A stretch of DNA of 64,000 nt, taken from positions 489 through 64,488 of the forward strand of contig CAWJLQ010000010.1 in assembly GCA_963843705.1 (NCBI GenBank). Reading direction: 5' to 3'. This DNA comes from an uncultured Actinomycetes bacterium. Lineage in GTDB: Bacteria > Actinomycetota > Thermoleophilia > Gaiellales > JAICJC01. The notes below the pieces were generated by a model, which ran no database searches, was not told the origin of the DNA, and saw only the letters and a list, made by a program, of their open reading frames with translations. A program made the position numbers and the translations under genes. The stretch's first letter is position 1, and each line of letters begins with the position of its first letter. Positions 10,879 through 58,959 of the stretch are shown here, in pieces.

Positions 10879-12472
10879 GCGCCCGGGCGCTCGCGGGTCG
10901 GTGCGTCGGCAGGCTCGCACGCGGCGGCCGGGCCGGCGTGGGCGCCTGCCGCCCGGCGGAGGCCCTGCCGGGAATCGTCACGAGTGCGATCGCCGCCCCC
11001 GCGAGCGCGACGGCCGCCGCCGTGACCAGTCCCAGGTGCGCTCCGCTCATGAAGCCGGAGCTGGCGGCATGGGCGATGCGCGCTCCCGTGGCGCCGCCCA
11101 TCCGCTGCCCGACCTCGAGCGCGGCGCCGAGCGAGCCCCTCATCGTCTGCTCGAGCGCGGAGGGAACGTGCAGCGGTGCGACAACGGTCGCGAGGTGATG
11201 GTCGTAGCGGTTGGAGAGCAGGCTGCCGATCACGGCGACCCCGAGGGCGCCGCCCGTCTGGATGATGGTGCCGTTCGTGCCTCCGCCGACGCCCGTGTGC
11301 TCGCCGGGCACCGAGCCCATGACGGATCCCGTGGCGGACGGGATGACCAGGCCTGCGCCCACGCCGATCATCACCATGCCGAGGACGATCCCGGTGTAGG
11401 TGGTGGAGATGGTCGCACCGGAGACCTGCCACAGACCGCCCGCCACGGAGAGCATGCCGGCCGCGATCGTCAGCCGGGTGCCCAGGAACCGCACGAGCAG
11501 GCTCGAGAGCGGGGCGACGAGAGCGATCGCCCCGGCGGCCGGCAGCATCCGCACACCGGCCTGGAGCGGCGTGTAGCCGAGCTGGAACTGGAGGAACTGC
11601 GTCAGGATGAAGAGCGACCCGAAGAGGCCGAACATCGTCAGCCCGACCGACACGATCGGCGCCGAGAAGCTGCGGTCGCGGAAGAACGCCAGGCGCAGCA
11701 TCGGATGCGTCGTCGTGCCCTCCCAGCCGACGAAGGCGGCGAGAACGGCCGCGCCGCCGAGACCGGCCGCCAGCACGCGCGCGGACGTCCACCCGTGCGC
11801 GGGCGCCTCGATGATCGCGTAGAGCACGAGCCCGAGACCGGCGATCGAGAGCAGCGATCCGGCCAGGTCGGGCGGCTGCGCCGCCGGGTTCTTCGAGTCC
11901 GGCACGAAGCGCAGCGCGAGGACGAACCCGGCCGCGGCCACCGGGACGTTCACGAGGAACACCGAGCCCCACCGGAAGTGCTCGAGCAGCAGTCCGCCCA
12001 CGATCGGGCCGAGGGCGATGCCCGCCCCGCTGGTCGCCGCCCACAGCCCGATCGCCCGCTGGCGCTCGCCGGCGGCGGTGAAGGTGGTCGTGATGATCGC
12101 GAGGGTGGAGGGCATGATCAGCGCCGCGCCGACGCCCATGCTGGCCCGGGCGGCGATCAGCGAGCCCACCGAGCCCGAGAACGCGGCCCAGGTGGAGCAG
12201 GCGGCGAACGCGACCAGGCCGGCGAGGAAGGTGCGCCGGCGCCCGATCCGATCCGCCAGGCTTCCGGCCACCAGCAGAAGGCCGGCGAACACCAGCACGT
12301 AGGCGTCGACGATCCACTGCAGGTCGCTCGAGCTGGCGTGCAGCTTCTCGACCAGCGTCGGCAGGGCGACGTTCAGGACGGTGTTGTCGAGCGTGACGAT
12401 CAGAAGCGACACGCACAGCACCGCCAGCGCCGGCCAGCGCCGCACATCCGCGTGAGCAGAGACCGTTGTCAT
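10850..12472 (-). CDS. MFS transporter, DHA2 (EmrB/QacA, 14-TM) family
   Basis: MTTVSAHADVRRWPALAVLCVSLLIVTLDNTVLNVALP and LADRIGRRR. Start taken at the internal ATG of ORF 10850..12538. Confidence 0.85.
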   Translation of the reverse strand: MTTVSAHADVRRWPALAVLCVSLLIVTLDNTVLNVALPTLVEKLHASSSDLQWIVDAYVLVFAGLLLVAGSLADRIGRRRTFLAGLVAFAACSTWAAFSGSVGSLIAARASMGVGAALIMPSTLAIITTTFTAAGERQRAIGLWAATSGAGIALGPIVGGLLLEHFRWGSVFLVNVPVAAAGFVLALRFVPDSKNPAAQPPDLAGSLLSIAGLGLVLYAIIEAPAHGWTSARVLAAGLGGAAVLAAFVGWEGTTTHPMLRLAFFRDRSFSAPIVSVGLTMFGLFGSLFILTQFLQFQLGYTPLQAGVRMLPAAGAIALVAPLSSLLVRFLGTRLTIAAGMLSVAGGLWQVSGATISTTYTGIVLGMVMIGVGAGLVIPSATGSVMGSVPGEHTGVGGGTNGTIIQTGGALGVAVIGSLLSNRYDHHLATVVAPLHVPSALEQTMRGSLGAALEVGQRMGGATGARIAHAASSGFMSGAHLGLVTAAAVALAGAAIALVTIPGRASAGRQAPTPARPPRASLPTHRPASARAPTRGSRRSG

Positions 12473-12594
12473 CGCTCTCGCCCCCTCGGGCACCGGGATC
12501 GTGTGCTTCAGGATCGCTTCGCACGGCACCGGTCGCATCGGGGACGGCCCCTATGCCGCCCTCGGGATTCGCGCACCCCGCGCCGGGGTGCCGC

Positions 12595-13248
12595 TCAGCC
12601 GCGGTGGTACCAGGGCGGCGCCGCAGCGGCCGCTGCGAGCGCCGCATGCCCGTCGCCGACGACCGGCGGGCCGTGGGTGGCCAGCACGTGGTCGAACCGG
12701 TCGGCCAGGATCGGGCCGAGCGTGGGCGCGAACCGGTCGGCGTAGAAGCGCCGCCGGCGCTCGTCCACCGGCTCGTTGCACCACATGCGCAGGCCCTCGG
12801 GCGTGCCGACCACCGCATCGCCGAACGCAACCGCCGCGTGCGACTCCACCAGCACGGGCAGCTCCGCCCGCCGCGGCCTGCCGATGGCGTACGCGCGCAC
12901 CCCCTCGGGGGCGCTCGCCGGCGAGAGCTCGCGAAACGGGCCGCGGTCGCGCATCCGCCTGCCGACGTTGCGGTGCCCCCACACCGTGGCGCCCGGGTGG
13001 CGCGCGCAGACCTCCTCGGCGCTGCGCAGGTGGTAGCCGATCGTGATCAGGCAGGTGACGACGCCCTCGACGGCGCCGTCGAGCCGGTCCCAGAAGCCCG
13101 CGTCGCCCTCCGGCGCCAGGGGATCGATGAGGACGGTGCGGCCGCCGCCGACGAGGGCGTAGCAGCCCACCTCCGCGCCCCACTCGCCCGGATGCCACTC
13201 GGGATGACGCGCCGTCCACCGCCAGATGCCGTCGGCGATCCGCTCCAC
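12595..13248 (-). CDS. MBL-fold-like protein with degenerate metal motif
   Basis: 217-aa ORF with good GC3. VLIDPL...LITIGYHLRS sits where THxHxDH is expected. Confidence 0.5.
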   Translation of the reverse strand: MERIADGIWRWTARHPEWHPGEWGAEVGCYALVGGGRTVLIDPLAPEGDAGFWDRLDGAVEGVVTCLITIGYHLRSAEEVCARHPGATVWGHRNVGRRMRDRGPFRELSPASAPEGVRAYAIGRPRRAELPVLVESHAAVAFGDAVVGTPEGLRMWCNEPVDERRRRFYADRFAPTLGPILADRFDHVLATHGPPVVGDGHAALAAAAAAPPWYHRG

Positions 13249-26319: not shown

Positions 26320-27698
26320 GAGCCTGCGCGTTTTTCTGTGTATCGGTGGGTGGTTAGGCATTGTCAGGGATGCGGTCTCCGAAGTGGATGCGCAGGACTG
26401 CCATCGCCTGTGTCCAGTTGTAGCAGGTGCGCCAGTTGGTCTTGGCGCGCATGATCGCGAGCCAGATCAACCTGAGGGCGGCGTCGTCGTTGGGGAAGTG
26501 GCCTCGGGTCTTGACCGTCTTGCGGATCTGCATGTGCAGGCTCTCGACCGTGTTTGTCGTGTAGACAACGCGGCGGATCTCCTGCGGGAAGGCGAGGAAG
26601 GGGATGAACCGCTCCCAGGCGCGTTCCCACACCTGCAGCGCCGCCGTCTTGGTCGTGCTGTCCGCCCAGGCAGCGGTCAGTTCGTCGAGCACCTGGCGGG
26701 CCTGGTCGGCGTCGGCGGCCGTGTACAGGCGGCGTAGCTCGCCGGCGCAGGTCTTGCGCTCCTTCCAGGACAGGTAGCGCAGGCTCTGCCTGGTCAGATG
26801 GACAACGCAGGTCTGGTTGACCGCCTCCGGGAAGACGGCGTCGATCGCCTCCGGGAAGCCGGTGAGGCCGTCGGTGCAGACGAACAGGACGTCGGTGACG
26901 CCGCGGTTGCGCAGCTCGGTCAGGACGCTCGTCCAGAAGCGGGCGCCCTCGGTCTTCTCAATCCAGAGGCCGAGGCAGTCGCGCTCGCCGTCGACGGTGA
27001 CGCCGATGGCCGAGTAGACGGCCTTCTTGCGGACGACCTGCTGGTCGCGGATCGCGACCTGGAGCGCGTCCAGGTACACGACGACATACAGCTCCTCCAG
27101 CGGCCGACTCTGCCAGGCGCGCACGTCGTCTTGGATCGAGGTGGTCACCTCCGACACCAAGCCGTCGGAGACGTCGACGCCGTACACCTCGCGCAGGTGC
27201 CGCTGGATCTCCCTGGTCGTCATCCCGCCCGCGTACAGGGCCAGGATCTGCTCGTCGAAGCCGTCGAACGAACGGCTGTGCTTGGGCACAATCCGCGGCT
27301 CGAAGCTGCCCTGTCGATCCCGGGGCAGCTCGACCGTCACCGGCCCGTCGACCGTCCGCAACGTCTTGCGCGAGCTGCCGTTGCGCCGGTTCGGCTGCTC
27401 CTGCGGCGCCTCACCGCCGGCAGGGTAACCGAGATGCTGCCCCAGCTCGGCGCCCGCGGCGCGCTCGATCAGCCGCTTCCGCAGCCGGTTGATCAAGCCA
27501 TCCGGACCGGTCAACTGCTCCGGCCCCTCATACCCCCCCAGCAGCTGATCGATCAGCTCGTCCGGGATCTCTCTGTGCTCGGCCATCAGGGCCTCCTTCC
27601 GGGCCGCCCGGCCCGGTCGCTCCGCTCACGGCTACGCCGCGAGCATCACGACCAGGCCGGACAGACCAGTCAGATACACAGAAATCCGCGCGGACTGC
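26320..27698 (-). mobile_element. IS256-family insertion sequence (about 1.38 kb) with imperfect terminal IRs and a 9-bp direct repeat GACTGTCAC
   Basis: Inner IR cores TTTCTGTGTATC (26333-44) and GATACACAGAAA (27673-84). Flanking GACTGTCAC at 26311-19 and 27699-07. Single mutator-type transposase inside. Confidence 0.85.
26354..27586 (-). CDS. IS256 family (mutator-type) transposase
   Basis: 410 aa. PRDRQGSFEPRIVPK, YLDALQV, VCTDGLTGFPEAI, VYTTNTVES. Confidence 0.95.
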   Translation of the reverse strand: MAEHREIPDELIDQLLGGYEGPEQLTGPDGLINRLRKRLIERAAGAELGQHLGYPAGGEAPQEQPNRRNGSSRKTLRTVDGPVTVELPRDRQGSFEPRIVPKHSRSFDGFDEQILALYAGGMTTREIQRHLREVYGVDVSDGLVSEVTTSIQDDVRAWQSRPLEELYVVVYLDALQVAIRDQQVVRKKAVYSAIGVTVDGERDCLGLWIEKTEGARFWTSVLTELRNRGVTDVLFVCTDGLTGFPEAIDAVFPEAVNQTCVVHLTRQSLRYLSWKERKTCAGELRRLYTAADADQARQVLDELTAAWADSTTKTAALQVWERAWERFIPFLAFPQEIRRVVYTTNTVESLHMQIRKTVKTRGHFPNDDAALRLIWLAIMRAKTNWRTCYNWTQAMAVLRIHFGDRIPDNA

Positions 27699-27822: not shown

Positions 27823-27966
27823 ATCGCCCCGGTGCTTTCGCCCATAGCGGCGCTGGGCGCCGCCCGCCGCAGCTCCGCCAGCTTCGAAAGGAGCGCTGTG
27901 CTGCGGCGGAAGAACCTCGCCCGCCCGAGACTGACGCATGCCAACGGCGCCAATCGGACGCTCCGC

Positions 27967-28980
27967 TCAGGGGAGCAGGCGCTCGAGACCGATCCCGCTC
28001 GTGAAGAGGTGCTCTCGGCGATCGGAGAGCAGGCGGGCCGCCCAGTCGACCGAACCACCATCTGCGAGCTCCCACTCCTCTCCGCGCAGCTCTGCGTCGA
28101 TGCGAAGCTGCAGGCCGTCGTAGTACCTGATGCCGTCCGTCCGGGTCAGGTCGATGAGCAGACGGCCGTCGGACGCCGCCGCGATCGGCGCCAGCGCCTC
28201 GGTCGCGGCTTCAAGGCGGCGCATGCGGCGGCCCAATCGGCGAGCCAGATCCGGAGGAAGGGCATCGCGGGGGCTGAGAACGTCAGGCATAACGGCCGCG
28301 CCAACACCAGTAGCTGCCAGGTGGATCGCCGTGTCGGAAATGCGCACAGCTGTTCGTCCGAGGGGGACGCCGAGCTCGCGCGCGGCCGCCACGATCGCAA
28401 GGTGGGCGCGGACGTGCTCCGCCATCGCATCGACCTCGGAACCGTGATCGGATCGCGATCGGGCGCCGGTTACCAGCGCGAAGATCACGAAATGCTGGAG
28501 GGCCGGCGGCTCGAATGCCTGTTGTCGCAGAACGCGGTGGGCCGCGCACATCCGCACCACGTCGACCCCCTCACGTCGTCGCCACGCCGCGCCGAGTGCC
28601 AGCGGCACGGTCGGGTCGGCGACCACTTCGGTCGCGCGCACCGTGGCCAGGACGTTGTTCTGATCGATCCCCGCAAGCACCGAGTTCGTCCCAACCGGCT
28701 CGACCGGAGCGAGCTCGACCGCCTCGTAGTCGGACACGGCGTCAAACGCCTCGACAACCAACCGTCCGAGCGCCCGTGCATCGATGCGACCGGCCTCGGT
28801 CGTGCGGTCGCGCCCGTACTGCGCCATCAGGTCGGTCGGCTTCCGACTCGCCGCTCGCGCGCGAGCCAGCTCCAGAAGGAGCGCTTGCACGTCGCTCGGT
28901 GAGGCGCGCTCCGAGAGGCGCTCAAGAAGGTCGGGAACGCCAACGTCTCGGCACACCCTCCGAACGACTGGACTCTCCAT
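27967..28980 (-). CDS. Orphan class II aminoacyl-tRNA synthetase core paralog (HisRS/HisZ-like), no anticodon-binding domain
   Basis: IDLTRTDGIRYYDGLQLRI, ADGGSVDW and FTSGIGLERLL match the HisRS/HisZ C-terminal motifs. Weaker motif 1 and 2 equivalents. Many A/T-ending codons, unlike neighbouring genes. Confidence 0.55.
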   Translation of the reverse strand: MESPVVRRVCRDVGVPDLLERLSERASPSDVQALLLELARARAASRKPTDLMAQYGRDRTTEAGRIDARALGRLVVEAFDAVSDYEAVELAPVEPVGTNSVLAGIDQNNVLATVRATEVVADPTVPLALGAAWRRREGVDVVRMCAAHRVLRQQAFEPPALQHFVIFALVTGARSRSDHGSEVDAMAEHVRAHLAIVAAARELGVPLGRTAVRISDTAIHLAATGVGAAVMPDVLSPRDALPPDLARRLGRRMRRLEAATEALAPIAAASDGRLLIDLTRTDGIRYYDGLQLRIDAELRGEEWELADGGSVDWAARLLSDRREHLFTSGIGLERLLP

Positions 28981-29171
28981 CCGCGCCGACCCTACATCGT
29001 GTCGGAGTTACGCGACATAGGCGCGATTTCGCCGAGCATCGAGCCCTGCGGTCAAGGGTCGTCGGCGCATCTTGAGAGAGCACCAGCACCATCGACACCT
29101 GACACATGCTGACGGCGCGAATTGCCGCGGCAAGGCCGCGACATCCGCCACCGGCCCAGCGTGGGAGCAGC

Positions 29172-32207: not shown

Positions 32208-32776
32208 CGGCGGCGCAGCTTGCGGCGGCGGTCCGAAAGGCCGTGCCCGGATCCGTCGTCTCGCACGAGAAGGGCATCGACATGCCGACGCTGACCGTGA
32301 AGCCGGAGAAGCTCGTCGAGGTGTGCACCTACCTGCGCGATGAGCAGGGCAAGAACTTCCTCTCGGCAGTCTCGGCCGTCGACCACCTCGGCTACGGCGA
32401 CGAGGTGTCCGGCTACTTCGGCACGGAGCGCGGCCGCGACCTGAACGCGACCGGGAGCTGGGGCGCGGCCGAGACGCCGGCGCAGCCGCCGAAGCGCTTC
32501 GCCGTCCGCTACCACGTCGCCCACGTCGGCGACGGCCCGCCCGAGCGCGTGCGCGTGCAGGTGTGGCTGGACGACGGCCAGGAGGTGGCGAGCGTCGTCC
32601 CGGTGTGGCCGACGGCCGACTGGCACGAGCGCGAGCAGTACGACCTGATGGGCATCGTCTTCGCCGGCCATCCCAACCTGCGCCGGCTGATCCTGCCGAC
32701 CGACTGGGACGGCCATCCCCTGCGCAAGGACTATCCGATCGGCGGCGAGCCGGTCCAGTTCACGGACGCCGTATGA
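32204..32776 (+). CDS. nuoC: NADH-quinone oxidoreductase subunit C
   Basis: [18 protein letters not shown]; GTGA overlap with nuoB. Confidence 0.9.
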
Positions 32777-34035
32777 GCATCGTCGAGCGCCCACCCGCCC
32801 CGGTCGAGCCGCTCTACACGCCCGCGCGCATCCCGCCCGGCGCGCCGTCGAAGGTCGACCCGCCGCCGGGCGAGGATCTGATCACCGTCAACTTCGGGCC
32901 CAACCACCCGTCGACGCACGGGGTGCTGCGCCTGATCGTGACCCTCGACGGCGAGGTGGTCGTCGGCCTCGACGCCGACATCGGCTACGTCCACACCGGC
33001 TTCGAGAAGAACTTCGAGCAGAAGACCTACTGGAAGTGCATCCCGTACGCGCCGCGGATGGACTACGTCGCCTTCTTCGCGAACGAGCTGGCCTATGTCG
33101 GCGCCGTGGAGAAGCTGATCGGGATCGAGGTGCCGGAGCGGGCGCAGTGGATCCGCACGCTCTTCGCCGAGCTGAACCGCATCCACAGCCACCTCATCTA
33201 CCTGGGCACGTCCGGGGTCGAGATGGGCGCGATGTCGGTGTTCTTCTACTGCCTGCGCGAGCGCGACGCGGTGCTCGACCTGTTCGAGATGGCCACCGGC
33301 GTGCGCATGCACGACCGCTACCCGCAGATCGGCGGCGTGGCCGAGGACCTGCCGAAGGGCTTCTACGCCGAGTGCCGCAAATTCTGCGAGATGATGCCCA
33401 AGCGCATCGACGAGTACCTCGACCTCCTGGCCGGGAACCCGGTCTGGAAGTCGCGCTACCACGGCATCGGCGCCATCACGGCAGACACGGCGATCGCGAT
33501 GGGGCTGTCCGGCCCGAACCTGCGCGCGAGCGGCGTCGCCTACGACCTGCGCCGCGTCGAGCCCTACCTCGTCTACGACCAGGTGGACTTCGACGTCATC
33601 CTCGGCGAGCGCGGCGACGCCTACGACCGCTTCCTGTGCCGGACGAAGGAGATGTACGAGTCGGTCAGGATCATCGAGCAGTGCCTCGACAAGATGCCCT
33701 CCGGGCCGGTGATGGCGACCGATCGCAAGTACGTGCTGCCGCCGCGGGCGGAGCTGCACACGTCGATGGAGTCGCTGATCCACCACTTCAAGCTCGTCAC
33801 CGAGGGCTTCCGTGTGCCGCCCGGCCAGGTGTATTACCCGGTCGAGTCGCCGCGGGGCGAGTTCGGCTGCTACCTCGTCTCCGACGGCGGCCCGAAGCCG
33901 TGGCGGGTGCACTTCCGCGCGCCGAGCTTCGTCAGCCTGCAGGTGACGGCGATGATGTCGGTCAACCGCTACATCGGCGACATGATCGTCGTCGTCGGCT
34001 CGCTCGACGGCGTCATGGGCGAGGCGGACCGGTAA
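32773..34035 (+). CDS. nuoD: NADH-quinone oxidoreductase subunit D
   Basis: NFGPNHPSTHGVLRL, ESPRGEFG; ATGA overlap with nuoC. Confidence 0.95.
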   Translation: MSIVERPPAPVEPLYTPARIPPGAPSKVDPPPGEDLITVNFGPNHPSTHGVLRLIVTLDGEVVVGLDADIGYVHTGFEKNFEQKTYWKCIPYAPRMDYVAFFANELAYVGAVEKLIGIEVPERAQWIRTLFAELNRIHSHLIYLGTSGVEMGAMSVFFYCLRERDAVLDLFEMATGVRMHDRYPQIGGVAEDLPKGFYAECRKFCEMMPKRIDEYLDLLAGNPVWKSRYHGIGAITADTAIAMGLSGPNLRASGVAYDLRRVEPYLVYDQVDFDVILGERGDAYDRFLCRTKEMYESVRIIEQCLDKMPSGPVMATDRKYVLPPRAELHTSMESLIHHFKLVTEGFRVPPGQVYYPVESPRGEFGCYLVSDGGPKPWRVHFRAPSFVSLQVTAMMSVNRYIGDMIVVVGSLDGVMGEADR

Positions 34036-34176
34036 AGATGGTCGACTCCGAACTCAACGCGCGCCCGGACGCACGACGGTCAGACGCCAGTTCAGCCACT
34101 ATGGCCGCTTCCTGCGTCCTTGCGCCGCTCGGTTCTCGCCCCCCAGGACATCACGTGAATTCGGAGTCGACCATCT
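34036..34176 (+). repeat. 141-nt hairpin element with perfect 17-bp terminal inverted repeats, filling the nuoD-nuoE gap
   Basis: AGATGGTCGACTCCGAA (34036-52) and TTCGGAGTCGACCATCT (34160-76). Inner pair GGACGCA (34067-73) / TGCGTCC (34113-19). Confidence 0.85.
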
Positions 34177-34177
34177 A

Positions 34178-34732
34178 GTGGACCCGGCCACCGCAGAGAC
34201 GCTCCGCGGCGCGCTCGAGACGCGCCCCGACATGCCCGCGCCGCTGCCGCCGGACGACACGAGCGCGCCGCTGCGCGACCGCATCCTGGCCGTCGTCGCG
34301 CTCTACCCGGAGCCGCGCTCGGCGCTGATCCCGGCGTTGCGCCTGGCCCAGGAGGAGTACGGCTGGCTGACGACCGAGGCCTACGAGCTGGTGGCCGACG
34401 CGACCGGGTTCACACCCGCTCTCTGCAAGTCGGTGGCATCGTTCTACGACATGTTCCGGCTGCAGCCGGTGGGCCGGCACGAGATCTGCGTGTGCACCAA
34501 CATCTCGTGCGCGCTCGTCGGCGCCGGCGAGACGGTGCGCGCGTTCGAGCGCGAGCTCGGCATCCAGGCCGGCGAGACGACGGCCGACGGCGCCTTCACG
34601 CTGCGCACCGTCGAGTGCTACGGCGGCTGCGGCTGGGGCCCGGTCGTCTCGGTCGACGAGCGCTACCACGAGCCCTTCGGCCCCGACCGCGTGAAGCCGC
34701 TCGTGGACGAGCTGCGGGGCGACGCGGGATGA
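34178..34732 (+). CDS. nuoE: NADH-quinone oxidoreductase subunit E
   Basis: CTNISCALVGA...ECYGGCGWGP 2Fe-2S motif. Confidence 0.9.
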   Translation: MDPATAETLRGALETRPDMPAPLPPDDTSAPLRDRILAVVALYPEPRSALIPALRLAQEEYGWLTTEAYELVADATGFTPALCKSVASFYDMFRLQPVGRHEICVCTNISCALVGAGETVRAFERELGIQAGETTADGAFTLRTVECYGGCGWGPVVSVDERYHEPFGPDRVKPLVDELRGDAG

Positions 34733-36039
34733 GCGAGCTGCGCAGGATCCTGCTCGACTTCGAGGGCGACCACCGCGACGTGCACGCCTACGAGCAGGCC
34801 GGCGGCTACGCGTCGCTGCGCAAGGCGCTCGGGATGGACACCGGCGACGTGGTCGCGGCGGTGGACGCCTCCGGCCTGCGCGGCCGCGGCGGCGCCGGCT
34901 TCCCGACCGGCCGCAAGGCCTCGTTCCTGCCCAAGGGGCGCACGCCGGCCTACCTGTGCGTGAACGCGGACGAGTCGGAGCCGGGCACGTTCAAGGACCG
35001 CGAGATCATGCTGCGCAACCCGCACGCGCTGATCGAGGGCATCGTGATCATGAGCTACGGGATCTCGGCCACCTCGGCGTTCATCTACATCCGCGGCGAG
35101 TACCGCACCGAGTTCGAGGTGCTGAAGCGGGCGCTCGAGGAGGCCCACGGCCGAGGCTATGTGGGCCGCAACGTGCTCGGGTCGGGCTACGACGCGACGA
35201 TCGTCCTGCACCGCGGCGCGGGCGCCTACATCTGCGGTGAGGAGACGGCGCTCCTGACCTCGCTCGAGGGCGAGCGCGGCCAGCCGCGCTCGAAGCCCCC
35301 GTTCCCGGCCGTCGCCGGCCTGTACGCGGCGCCGACGCTCGTGAACAACGTCGAGACGCTCGCGTCGGTGCCGTACATCCTGGAGATGGGCGGCGAGGCC
35401 TACGCCGCGATCGGCACCGAGCGCTCCAAGGGCACGCGCGTGTTCTCGCTGTCGGGCAACGTGAAGCGGCCCGGGAACTACGAGCTCCCGCTGACTGCCA
35501 CGTTGCGCGACCTGATCGAAGGCCGCGGCGGCGGAGCGCCGGACGGGCGCTCGATCAAGGCCATCATCCCCGGCGGCTCCTCGACGCCGCTGCTCATGCC
35601 CGACCAGCTCGACACCGGCATCGACTACGAGTCGATCGCGGCGGCGGGCTCGATGGCGGGCTCCGGAGCGGTGGTCGTGATCGACGACCGCGCCTGCATG
35701 GTGCAGCTCGCGCTGCGGGTGGCGCAGTTCTACCGCCACGAGAGCTGCGGCAAGTGCACGCCCTGCCGCGAGGGCACGAAGTGGGGCGTCGACATCATCC
35801 AGCGGATCGAGGACGGCACCGCCTCGCAGGGCGACCTCGACCTGCTCCTGAACGTGTGCGACCGCATCCTGGGCAAGTGCCTGTGCCCGCTGGGCGACGC
35901 GATGGCGATGCCGGTGGCGAGCTACGTCACCCACTTCCGCGAGGAGTTCCAGCGGCACATCGACGAGGGCGGCTGCCCGTTCGTCGAGCAGAGCCCGATC
36001 GCGAGCCTCTACCACGACACGGGCGGAGTGCCGGCGTGA
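34729..36039 (+). CDS. nuoF: NADH-quinone oxidoreductase subunit F
   Basis: GLRGRGGAGFPTG and ESCGKCTPCREG. Confidence 0.95.
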   Translation: MSELRRILLDFEGDHRDVHAYEQAGGYASLRKALGMDTGDVVAAVDASGLRGRGGAGFPTGRKASFLPKGRTPAYLCVNADESEPGTFKDREIMLRNPHALIEGIVIMSYGISATSAFIYIRGEYRTEFEVLKRALEEAHGRGYVGRNVLGSGYDATIVLHRGAGAYICGEETALLTSLEGERGQPRSKPPFPAVAGLYAAPTLVNNVETLASVPYILEMGGEAYAAIGTERSKGTRVFSLSGNVKRPGNYELPLTATLRDLIEGRGGGAPDGRSIKAIIPGGSSTPLLMPDQLDTGIDYESIAAAGSMAGSGAVVVIDDRACMVQLALRVAQFYRHESCGKCTPCREGTKWGVDIIQRIEDGTASQGDLDLLLNVCDRILGKCLCPLGDAMAMPVASYVTHFREEFQRHIDEGGCPFVEQSPIASLYHDTGGVPA

Positions 36040-36194
36040 ACACCTTCCACGACGCCTTCATGGACGTGCGCCGGCGCATCGAGGAGGGCGAGGACCCCGA
36101 GCTGATCGTCCCGGAGCTCCTGCGCCTGGCCTCCGCCCAGGACGAGATCGACATGGCCGAGGCGCTGTACGAGGACGAGGGCGACGATGAATAA
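36036..36194 (+). CDS. 52-aa acidic protein encoded between nuoF and nuoG (unassigned)
   Basis: The GTG overlaps the nuoF TGA (GTGA). All but one sense codon (50 of 51 after the GTG start) end in G or C. Sequence VNTFHDAFMDVRRRIEEGEDPELIVPELLRLASAQDEIDMAEALYEDEGDDE. Confidence 0.6.
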   Translation: MNTFHDAFMDVRRRIEEGEDPELIVPELLRLASAQDEIDMAEALYEDEGDDE

Positions 36195-38528: not shown

Positions 38529-39520
38529 CGGCTTCATCGTCACCCTGATCAAGGCGATCGTCCTGGCCAACCTCGTGATGGGCGTCTTCGCGCTGCTGAC
38601 CTGGGCCGAGCGGCGCCTGCTGGGCCGCTTCCAGGTCCGCCTGGGACCGAACCGGGTCGGCCCCTTCGGCCTGCTGCAGCCCATCGCCGACCTGGTCAAG
38701 CTGATCCGCAAGGAGAGCCTGATGCCGGTCGGCGTGAACCCGCTGCTCTACCTGACGGCGCCGCTCGTCTCGCTCTTCGCGTCGCTGGCCGTGTTCGCGG
38801 TGATCCCCTTCGGCGGCCAGGCGACGATCCCCGGCACCGACTACAAGATCTTCCTGTGGATCTCCAACCCGGGCGTCGCGCTGCTGGTCGTCTTCGCGCT
38901 CGGCTCGCTCAGCTTCTACGGGTTCCTGGTCGGCGGCTGGTCGTCGAGCTCGAAGTACAGCCTGCTCGGCTCGATGCGGGCCGTGTCGCAGCTGATCTCC
39001 TACGAGGTCAGCCTGGCCCTCGCGGTGATCGGGGTGGTCATGATGAGCCACTCGCTCTCGCTGACCCGGATCGTCGCCTCGCAGCACCAGGGCAGCAGCC
39101 TGCCCTACATCATCCCGCAGTTCCTCGGGTTCCTCGTGTACGTGGTGGCCTCGACCGCGGAGACGAGCCGCATCCCCTTCGACCTGCCCGAGGCGGAGGG
39201 CGAGCTGGTCGCCGGCTACCACACCGAGTACGGCGGCATGCGCTTCGCGATGTTCCAGAACGCCGAGTACGTGGCGCTGATCGCCTTCTCTGCCGTGGCG
39301 TCCATCCTCTTCCTCGGCGGCTACGGCTGGCCGTGGCTGCCCGGCCCGATCTGGATGGTGCTCGAGATGTCCGATCTTCATCTTCGTGGCGATGTGGCTG
39401 CGGGCGACCCTGCCGCGCGTGCGCTATGACAAGCTCATGGTGATCGGCTGGAAGGTGCTCCTGCCGCTGGCCACCGTCAACCTGCTGGTCACGTCAGTGA
39501 TCGTCGCCTGGAGGGCATAG
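38521..39520 (+). pseudogene. nuoH: nuoH, interrupted as assembled: conserved C-terminus ([31 protein letters not shown]) lies in the +1 frame from about 39374
   Basis: Frame A reads NuoH-like sequence to [11 protein letters not shown], then nonsense to TGA 39429. Frame A+1 from 39374 to TAG 39520 gives the canonical NuoH end. Confidence 0.7.
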
Positions 39521-39521
39521 T

Positions 39522-39676
39522 GGGCCTTCTCGCGATGTCAGGCCCGTTCTGGCGGCTGCAAACCATCGCGCTGAGGCGTCCTCGGACGGCGTCGTGCAAA
39601 GCACTGCCGCCGTCCGTCGTCCTTTCATCGCTCGGTTTTCGCTCGCCATCTCCAAACCACCATCACGAGAAGGTCC
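39522..39676 (+). repeat. 155-nt structured spacer between nuoH and nuoI, related to the 34036 element
   Basis: Terminal pairing GGGCCTTCTCG (39522-32) with CGAGAAGGTCC (39666-76, one G-U). Inner hairpin CGGACGGCG (39583-91) / CGCCGTCCG (39608-16). CGCTCGGTTTTCGC matches the 34126-39 segment of the nuoD-nuoE element at 13 of 14 positions. Confidence 0.65.
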
Positions 39677-39683
39677 ACTGACG

Positions 39684-58760: not shown

Positions 58761-58959
58761 AGATGGTTGACCCTACGCCCCTGTGTGGTCTGTGCGGTTG
58801 CGAACCGAGCAGCGCGCGGACGCAGGGAGCGTTCATCGTGGGCGAACTATGGGCGCGACTGAGGACGCAGCGATGCGACGGTTCGCAACCGCAGCCCCAC
58901 CAACGCCCATACCGCGCCAACGGCCTGATGTCCAGACGCCCGGGTGGAATCAACCATCT
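58761..58959. repeat. 199-nt hairpin element between ychF and the VOC gene, same family as 34036-34176
   Basis: Outer IR AGATGGTTGA (58761-70) / TCAACCATCT (58950-59). Inner perfect 15-bp IR TGCGGTTGCGAACCG (58793-807) / CGGTTCGCAACCGCA (58879-93). Ends and core match the nuoD-nuoE element. Confidence 0.8.

Follow-up and report, generated by a model that had tools for sequence, protein, structure and literature searches.

Results

A palindromic element between nuoD and nuoE

The window, by which we mean the whole 64-kb stretch of DNA analyzed here (64,000 nucleotides), carries a complex I operon of a soil Gaiellales bacterium. The genes around the element described below were identified with Pfam as nuoA-G in their usual order, and those NuoE homologs that bear names come from Gaiellales or Thermoleophilia MAGs. 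With gene starts set as in relatives, the junction gaps along the operon are, in nt, -10 (A/B), -4 (B/C), -4 (C/D), +142 (D/E), -4 (E/F), -4 (F/orfX), +3 (orfX/G), -8 (G/H), +163 (H/I), -4 (I/J), -1 (J/K), +19 (K/L), -4 (L/M) and -4 (M/N). Besides D/E and H/I, all junctions overlap or have a gap of at most 19 nt. An earlier reading of this DNA from its letters (hereafter the sequence-only reading) had called the 142-nt D/E gap anomalous. This is borne out, the H/I gap being the other anomaly, also with a palindromic element. The nuoE start (GTG/ATG GAC CCG GCC) aligns with that of relatives, and a TAG at 34176-78, beginning with the last T of the right arm of the element, overlaps the nuoE GTG (Table 1).

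The same reading had placed perfect 17-bp inverted repeats at 34036/34176, right after the nuoD TAA, and these coordinates were confirmed by a sequence check, with AGATGGTCGACTCCGAA at 34036-34052 and its exact reverse complement at 34160-34176. A repeat finder extended the arms to 21 nt (34036-56 / 34156-76), with 20/21 matches corresponding to 95% complementarity, and returned an inner pairing of 34061-76 with 34110-25. Repeat finder and RNA folding agree with the earlier claim that a second internal pairing makes the whole spacer one hairpin, and the only GGAG ahead of nuoE does lie inside the 3' arm (34163-66), as had been noted. Searching the window for the 17-mer arm with up to three mismatches gave three matches (the two arms and one 3-mismatch site) versus 0.11 expected from shuffles; hence, the arm pair is not due to chance. 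The left arm also matches the consensus of the family described below, AGATGGTCGAYTCCGAAYT, as well as the ends of IS982-type elements.

The RNA of the element is predicted to fold as a single hairpin of about -67 to -69.5 kcal/mol with a z score of about -5 (z = -4.8 for -69.5 kcal/mol, a value equaled by 0 of 200 shuffles). Its uninterrupted stem comprises 17 perfect base pairs, or 21 with one mismatch, that is about two helical turns. The GC content of the element is 64%, as compared to 72% for the window. With 141 nt and no transposase gene, the element has the small size that is part of the definition of a MITE. In Rfam 15, no covariance model reached its gathering score anywhere in the window, and 33950-34260 had no match even at E ≤ 1. 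A terminator scan returned 0 terminator-like sites in 33800-34400, the stem being followed by AGTGGACCC and not by a T run, and a promoter scan of the element region found no promoter-like site on either strand. Transcription should therefore run through the element.

Two further assemblies of this species, a 1.03-Mb ENA contig (L001) and a Logan contig (L002), which are 99.2% and 99.9% identical to the window, respectively, have exactly the same element sequence, which shows that it is not an assembly artefact. On the other hand, the window contig and L001 differ here and there by single-base indels, which disrupt genes in either of them: as compared to L001, the window has an extra C at 39371, which puts the last ~50 codons of nuoH out of frame, and L001 has its own single-base indels at positions matching 38668 and 38800 of the window. 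These indels, including the nuoH frameshift, probably correspond to long-read consensus errors rather than to pseudogenisation.

Two further features of the operon were observed. One is a 52-codon ORF (orfX, 36036-36194, + strand) between nuoF and nuoG, with a 4-nt overlap at the nuoF stop. Relatives L003-L009 have a called ORF of 49-58 aa in this position. The ORF belongs to no Pfam family and may be a conserved small subunit or a leader. The nuoH-nuoI junction is occupied by an element similar in architecture to that of the nuoD-nuoE junction, which is not a copy of the same family. Its arms are AGTGGGCCTTCTCGCGATG / CATCACGAGAAGGTCCACT, and it folds at -79 kcal/mol, its complement at -92. 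A GTG at 39520, within TAGTG, opens a 53-codon frame that ends at a TGA (39679-81), 2 nt before the nuoI ATG. This second element is absent from L001, the one assembly from which its absence is known, and its arm is also one end of a truncated copy found in a metagenome contig (L044).

Table 1 Position of the putative MITE copies, their parts and the neighboring genes in the window
Feature	Position	Strand	Description
nuoD (420 aa)	32773..34035	+	PF00346; C-terminus ...VMGEADR* as in relatives
nuoD stop TAA	34033..34035	+	TA 34033-34 and TA 34176-77 are the only direct repeat flanking the insertion
MITE copy 1	34036..34176	+	141 nt, one long hairpin, occupies the entire nuoD-nuoE junction
Left terminal inverted repeat	34036..34056	+	17 nt perfect, 21 nt with one mismatch; holds ATG 34038
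46-codon open frame	34038..34178	+	ATG 2 nt past the nuoD stop, TAG overlapping the nuoE GTG
Right terminal inverted repeat	34156..34176	+	Holds GGAG 34163-66
nuoE (184 aa)	34178..34732	+	PF01257; homologs of 184 aa; start same as relatives
Different 161-nt palindromic element	39519..39679	+	Arms AGTGGRCCTTCTCG...; occupies the nuoH-nuoI junction
MITE copy 2	58761..58959	-	199 nt, degenerate arms, found with relaxed arm match; nhmmer 78 bits

Empty sites in relatives

The nuoD-nuoE spacing was compared in relatives, a check that the sequence-only reading had proposed. In all those examined (L003, L004, L006-L010, L011 and L012), the two genes overlap tightly, with nothing between them, and the element is absent from the junction. 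In the closest ones (L011 and L012; NuoE 87-89% identical), the junction reads GCGGACCGG-TAGTG-GACCCGGCC, the TAG of nuoD overlapping the GTG of nuoE. The junction is TGATG in L003 and L004 (NuoE 86% identical), and the overlaps are ATGA or GTGA in L006-L010 (NuoE 80-81% identical).

Alignment of the empty site CGG-TA-GTGG of L011/L012 with the sequence of the window, CGG-TA-AAGATGG...CCATC-TA-GTGG, gives a net insertion of 143 nt. The lengths and termini of NuoD and NuoE are unchanged; nuoD now ends with TAA and the TAGTG motif is rebuilt at the right end. Judged by this comparison of sequences, the nuoD-nuoE spacer is an insertion. In an ancestor of this Gaiellales lineage, the element entered the TAG of a nuoD/nuoE overlap of the form CGG-TAGTG-GAC.

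A dispersed family

Other copies of the element, for which the sequence-only reading had suggested a search, were found in the window itself, in Thermoleophilia MAGs and in soil metagenomes. Copy 2 lies in the window between the ychF stop codon (TAG 58960-58958) and the GTG of a glyoxalase-family gene (58756). In L086, whose YchF is 94% identical, the corresponding junction is empty and reads GTC-TGATG-ATC, again a stop/start overlap. Hence, presence/absence polymorphism with an intact empty site is seen at both the nuoD/nuoE junction (TAGTG or TGATG) and the ychF junction (TGATG).

Species-representative genomes and a metagenome collection were scanned for exact 19-mers of the arm AGATGGTCGACTCCGAAYT. 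The genome scan gave 13 single matches versus ~9 expected by chance. Eleven of them are chance or coding matches, and the other two, in a Thermoleophilia MAG (L014) and in a Solirubrobacteraceae MAG (L019), have a second arm, diverged but correctly spaced, and are copies of the family. The metagenome scan gave 54 matches, ~40 of which are chance or coding. Among the others are six complete elements of 165-201 nt (L031, L041, L046, L065, L069 and L074), elements cut at contig ends (L047 and L043) and the truncated copy in L044. L043 was not retained as a separate copy, being the same locus as L065. L036 was discarded as a family member, having no hairpin (z = +1.2), and the arm 19-mers of L015, L016, L022 (and L024/L025) were set aside as chance or coding matches, lying in coding genes. 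The coding 19-mers encode K-M-V-D-S-E-L-G-P in HsdS-like specificity subunits or lie in a Gordonia regulator. In total, the family comprises the two copies of the window and about ten independent loci elsewhere, with lengths of 141-201 nt.

An nhmmer profile built from ten copies scored all ten at 78-121 bits in one orientation (83 bits for copy 1) and at 17-36 bits in the other, which gives the family a polarity. Copy 1 is closest to L046 and to copy 2. Partial arm fragments adjoin two of the metagenome copies, at 124-140 of L047 (AGATGGTCGATCTAG) and at 4809-4825 of L041 (CGATGGTCGGGTG); these may have been left by insertions that were nested or recurred at the same site.

Insertion at stop codons

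The sites occupied by the family share several features. Read in the polarity of the family, the left end of the element is abutted or overlapped by the stop codon of an upstream co-directional gene in seven of the ten copies, this codon being TAG in six and TAA in copy 1, and a co-directional start codon is found 2-21 nt beyond the right end in six of the ten. A T precedes at least one end in every copy, giving TAGATGG. All ten copies run in the direction of the adjacent genes, and the genes themselves are unrelated from one junction to another (e.g. ychF, Gfo/Idh/MocA genes, a rhomboid gene).

CTAG occurs 16 times in the window, as compared to 160 expected from base composition, and two of these 16 are ends of the element. 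For comparison, TAA occurs 10 times on the plus strand and 13 times on the minus strand versus 167 expected. The copy in L074 has CTAG...CTAG flanks, formally a TA duplication within CTAG, like the IS copies described below. Copy 1 is flanked by TA...TA, its left junction having two extra A's, and most of the remaining copies show TAG on one side only, the opposite side reading CGAG, CAG or similar. Models with duplication of TA, TAG, CTAG, 1 nt or none were tried, and none of them fits all copies.

Targets containing TA, and CTAG especially, are rare at 72% GC and concentrated at stop codons, which would direct insertions onto gene ends. Since most (C)TAG sites in such a genome are stop codons, a preference for this target suffices to account for the exact position of the element between nuoD and nuoE.

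An IS982-type partner

The IS that could serve as the autonomous partner lies on contig L061, which carries, at 11728-12735, a 1008-bp unit with arms AGATGATTGATTCCGAATT and AGATGGTCGATTCCGAATT and a single ORF of 289 aa. The product scores 175.5 bits (cutoff 130) on the NCBIfam model of the IS982 family (NF033520) and also matches Pfam DDE_Tnp_1. It has thousands of close relatives, mostly on ~1-kb contigs, some of which are named IS982 family transposases from Actinobacteria. Three further independent IS copies with the same ends were identified (L080, also represented by L081 and L082; L083; L084), so that these IS982-type elements measure 984-1008 bp, with one 289-aa ORF and arms of ~20 nt. 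Their ends match the family arm at 16-19 of 19 positions in L061, L080, L083 and L084. At all four loci, CTAG stands on either side of the IS (CTAGATGRTTGATTCC...CATCTAG), as results from insertion into the middle of a CTAG; formally, this is a TA duplication.

The similarity between the two kinds of elements concerns the ends. The possibility that the interior of the MITE derives from the IS982-type element was rejected, as beyond the ~19-20-nt arms only chance-level matches of 7-12 nt were found. The IS982-type element was not found in the 64-kb window of the source genome and is known from other contigs. Its transposase presumably moves the short element in trans.

Another IS lies in the neighborhood. 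Two blocks of the window, 26320-27693 and 27823-29171, are absent from L001, and the first of them holds an intact IS256-family transposase ORF (26354-27586, - strand; NF033543, 390 bits). This IS256 was rejected as a source of the element, its transposase being of a different family and its ends unrelated.

The 46-codon frame and translation of nuoE

The element carries an open frame whose junctions with the two genes read TAA-AG-ATG ... 46 codons ... TAGTG. The sequence-only reading had taken the spacer as non-coding in spite of this frame, and our data uphold that view. GC3 is 0.67 in the frame, versus 0.90 in nuoD and 0.97 in nuoE, the 46-aa product has no Pfam match, and the frame is not conserved as coding sequence. 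Only the peptide ends, encoded by the terminal inverted repeats (MVDSEL...NSESTI), recur in other copies, and the interiors differ. Among the ten copies, the gene-sense frame is open to the end of the element in six and closed in four, and the length is a multiple of 3 in seven. It is thus extremely unlikely that this is a real 46-aa protein gene, for example that of a small complex I accessory subunit: the placement of its ATG just past the nuoD stop and of its TAG over the nuoE GTG speaks for such a gene, and the low GC3, the lack of a Pfam match, the ends that are translated repeats, the variable interiors and the absence of the frame in relatives speak against it.

The frame could have another role. 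In the predicted fold of the mRNA, the terminal 17-21-bp stem buries the only GGAG upstream of nuoE. Ribosomes ending nuoD could re-initiate at ATG 34038 and read the 46 codons; in doing so, they could melt the hairpin that hides the GGAG and then re-initiate at nuoE, thereby relaying translational coupling across the insertion. The insertion would be tolerated since it brings no terminator and has its ATG and TAG placed for such a relay. This architecture follows largely from the arm sequence and the TAG target, and it is not constant across the family, the relay frame being open in six of ten copies. Therefore, the relay is a plausible reason for the toleration of copy 1, not a proven design. 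Cleavage of the terminal stem by RNase III, as with Correia elements, is possible by analogy.

The stem had also been proposed to gate nuoE translation or to mark a processing site at the boundary between the Q- and N-modules. Nothing requires such a role: the preference for TAG targets explains the position, the family occurs at unrelated junctions and relatives do without the element. A hairpin selected in cis, to control nuoE translation as a gate or to uncouple the Q-module from the N-module through an RNase III site, would account for the stability of the fold (-67 to -69.5 kcal/mol, z about -5), for the burying of the sole GGAG ahead of nuoE, for a stem whose 17-21 bp, judging from Correia elements (PMC10969869), suffice for RNase III, and for the constant co-orientation of the family with neighboring genes. 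However, the hairpin is absent from all relatives examined, where nuoD and nuoE overlap tightly, the same family sits at ychF, Gfo/Idh/MocA and rhomboid junctions, the mRNA-sense strand is the weaker-folding one (see below) and no Rfam match was found. We consider selection for a cis-regulatory role quite unlikely.

Conservation of the hairpin and strand asymmetry

Each copy of the family forms one long hairpin, with z scores from -5.5 to -10.9, and the interiors are only about 50-70% identical between subfamilies. Covariation was measured on an alignment of eight copies, using a 65-pair consensus structure predicted on the complement strand. In this alignment, 89.6% of the cells are paired, versus 77% after shuffling and 36-40% when partners are slid. 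Both sides have changed in 32 of the 65 pairs, as compared to 18 after shuffling and 6-13 after sliding, and 0 of 500 shuffles reached the observed pairing values. By these sequence comparisons, the hairpin of the family is maintained by compensatory changes.

The two strands are not equivalent. In eight of the ten copies, the fold of the gene-sense complement is more stable by 16-33 kcal/mol, with 6-11 G.U pairs per copy on the complement strand versus 1-4 on the gene-sense strand. Over the whole alignment, the G.U pairs amount to 64 on the complement strand and 8 on the gene-sense strand, a count that is biased, since the structure used was predicted on that same complement strand, and that comes from related copies. 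Hence, the better-folding, G.U-rich strand is antisense to the neighboring genes. This may be because insertions bringing the strong hairpin into the mRNA are eliminated; alternatively, the element itself may use the hairpin on the opposite strand, in an antisense RNA or a single-stranded intermediate. Deamination linked to transcription or replication was dismissed as the origin of the asymmetry, because by reasoning it predicts the opposite direction.

These data bear on a function of the opposite strand, in which a structured antisense RNA or a strand-specific ssDNA intermediate would keep the hairpin under selection. The better fold of the complement by 16-33 kcal/mol in 8/10 copies, with its more numerous G.U pairs, and the excess of pairs changed on both sides over shuffles (32/65 versus 18), together with the 64 versus 8 G.U pairs, are in line with this proposal. 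On the other hand, no promoter-like site is found on either strand, the G.U count depends on the strand of the prediction, the copies are not independent, and palindromes can persist through DNA-level processes. Such a function appears very unlikely for this element.

Discussion

Overall, the nuoD-nuoE spacer is, with high probability, a non-autonomous MITE of a Thermoleophilia family that shares its ends with an IS982-type IS, and most likely a tolerated passenger of the operon. The sequence-only reading had recognized the signature of a MITE in this small insertion bounded by inverted repeats. Other copies, empty sites and an IS982-family partner with the same ends have now been found. That reading had also named what would speak against it, namely a spacer with no other copies that is conserved as protein-coding sequence in relatives. 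We looked at both points: further copies exist, and the spacer is not conserved as coding.

Two features hint at more than a neutral insertion, the strong compensatory variation in the hairpin and the uniform co-orientation with genes. They could reflect an operon-compatible MITE under selection, which combines a self-healing relay (stop-ATG...TAG-GTG) with a hairpin kept on the antisense strand. We find this rather unlikely. If it were true, insertions into translationally coupled junctions would be self-healing, and the maintained strand would point to an antisense RNA or to an intermediate of IS982-type transposition. The uniform orientation relative to genes and the asymmetry between the strands of the conserved hairpin could be followed up.

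Identification of the MITE accounts for a 142-nt gap that is out of place in a complex I operon whose genes otherwise overlap tightly. It adds a new MITE family and its IS982-type partner to the Thermoleophilia, a class with almost no described mobile elements; we found no literature on such elements in this class. For the annotation of high-GC soil Actinomycetota, it serves as a warning that mobile elements can be behind such gaps and behind the small ORFs they contain. Three coupled junctions of a single 64-kb window carry palindromic insertions (nuoD/E, nuoH/I and ychF/glyoxalase), and strains with 99.2% identity differ in at least one of them, that at nuoH/I. These sites offer a natural experiment on how translational coupling may survive the insertion of a hairpin of -67 kcal/mol or stronger.

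The element is an ordinary MITE of a new family, since IS982-derived, operon-internal, hairpin-forming and coupling-preserving repeats are all already known. A MITE derived from the IS982 family has been described in the Cardinium endosymbiont cOegib (PMC9769881). Like the present one, it is short and non-coding, has inverted repeats matching those of an IS982-family IS that is present as intact copies, and occurs in many dispersed copies. In contrast, it measures about 240 bp, resides in a Bacteroidota endosymbiont and keeps an IS-derived interior (PMC9769881), whereas the Thermoleophilia element is a single hairpin, with an interior devoid of IS similarity, in high-GC hosts. [quoted passage not shown] 2008, as described in PMC10969869) is comparable in being recently active and located between cistrons of an operon left intact. 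According to this citing description (PMC10969869), Chunjie copies vary in size, as they do here; family and host are different.

Mycobacterial MIRUs are also repeats at gene boundaries, with an internal ORF that couples to the neighboring genes (PMC12548453), and this relay ORF has been proposed to preserve translation of the downstream gene (PMC12548453). However, MIRUs are direct or tandem repeats of 40-100 bp, without terminal inverted repeats or a known transposase (PMC12548453); here, the relay frame arises from the repeat sequence and the TAG target and is open in six of ten copies. Correia elements of Neisseria and ERIC elements of enterobacteria resemble the present family as palindromes of 100-200 nt bounded by terminal inverted repeats, which are co-transcribed and form long RNA hairpins; moreover, Correia elements insert at TA. 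Processing by RNase III or RNase E has been demonstrated for these elements, with cleavage of Correia stems by RNase III (PMC10969869), whereas the fold reported here is a prediction. In addition, the sequences are unrelated and neither an IHF site nor a promoter was found in our case. Finally, the Rickettsia palindromic elements are, like the MITE described here, palindromes of about 150 nt that keep frames open. Those elements make in-frame fusions within coding sequences, whereas the Thermoleophilia family inserts at stop and start codons, outside the proteins.
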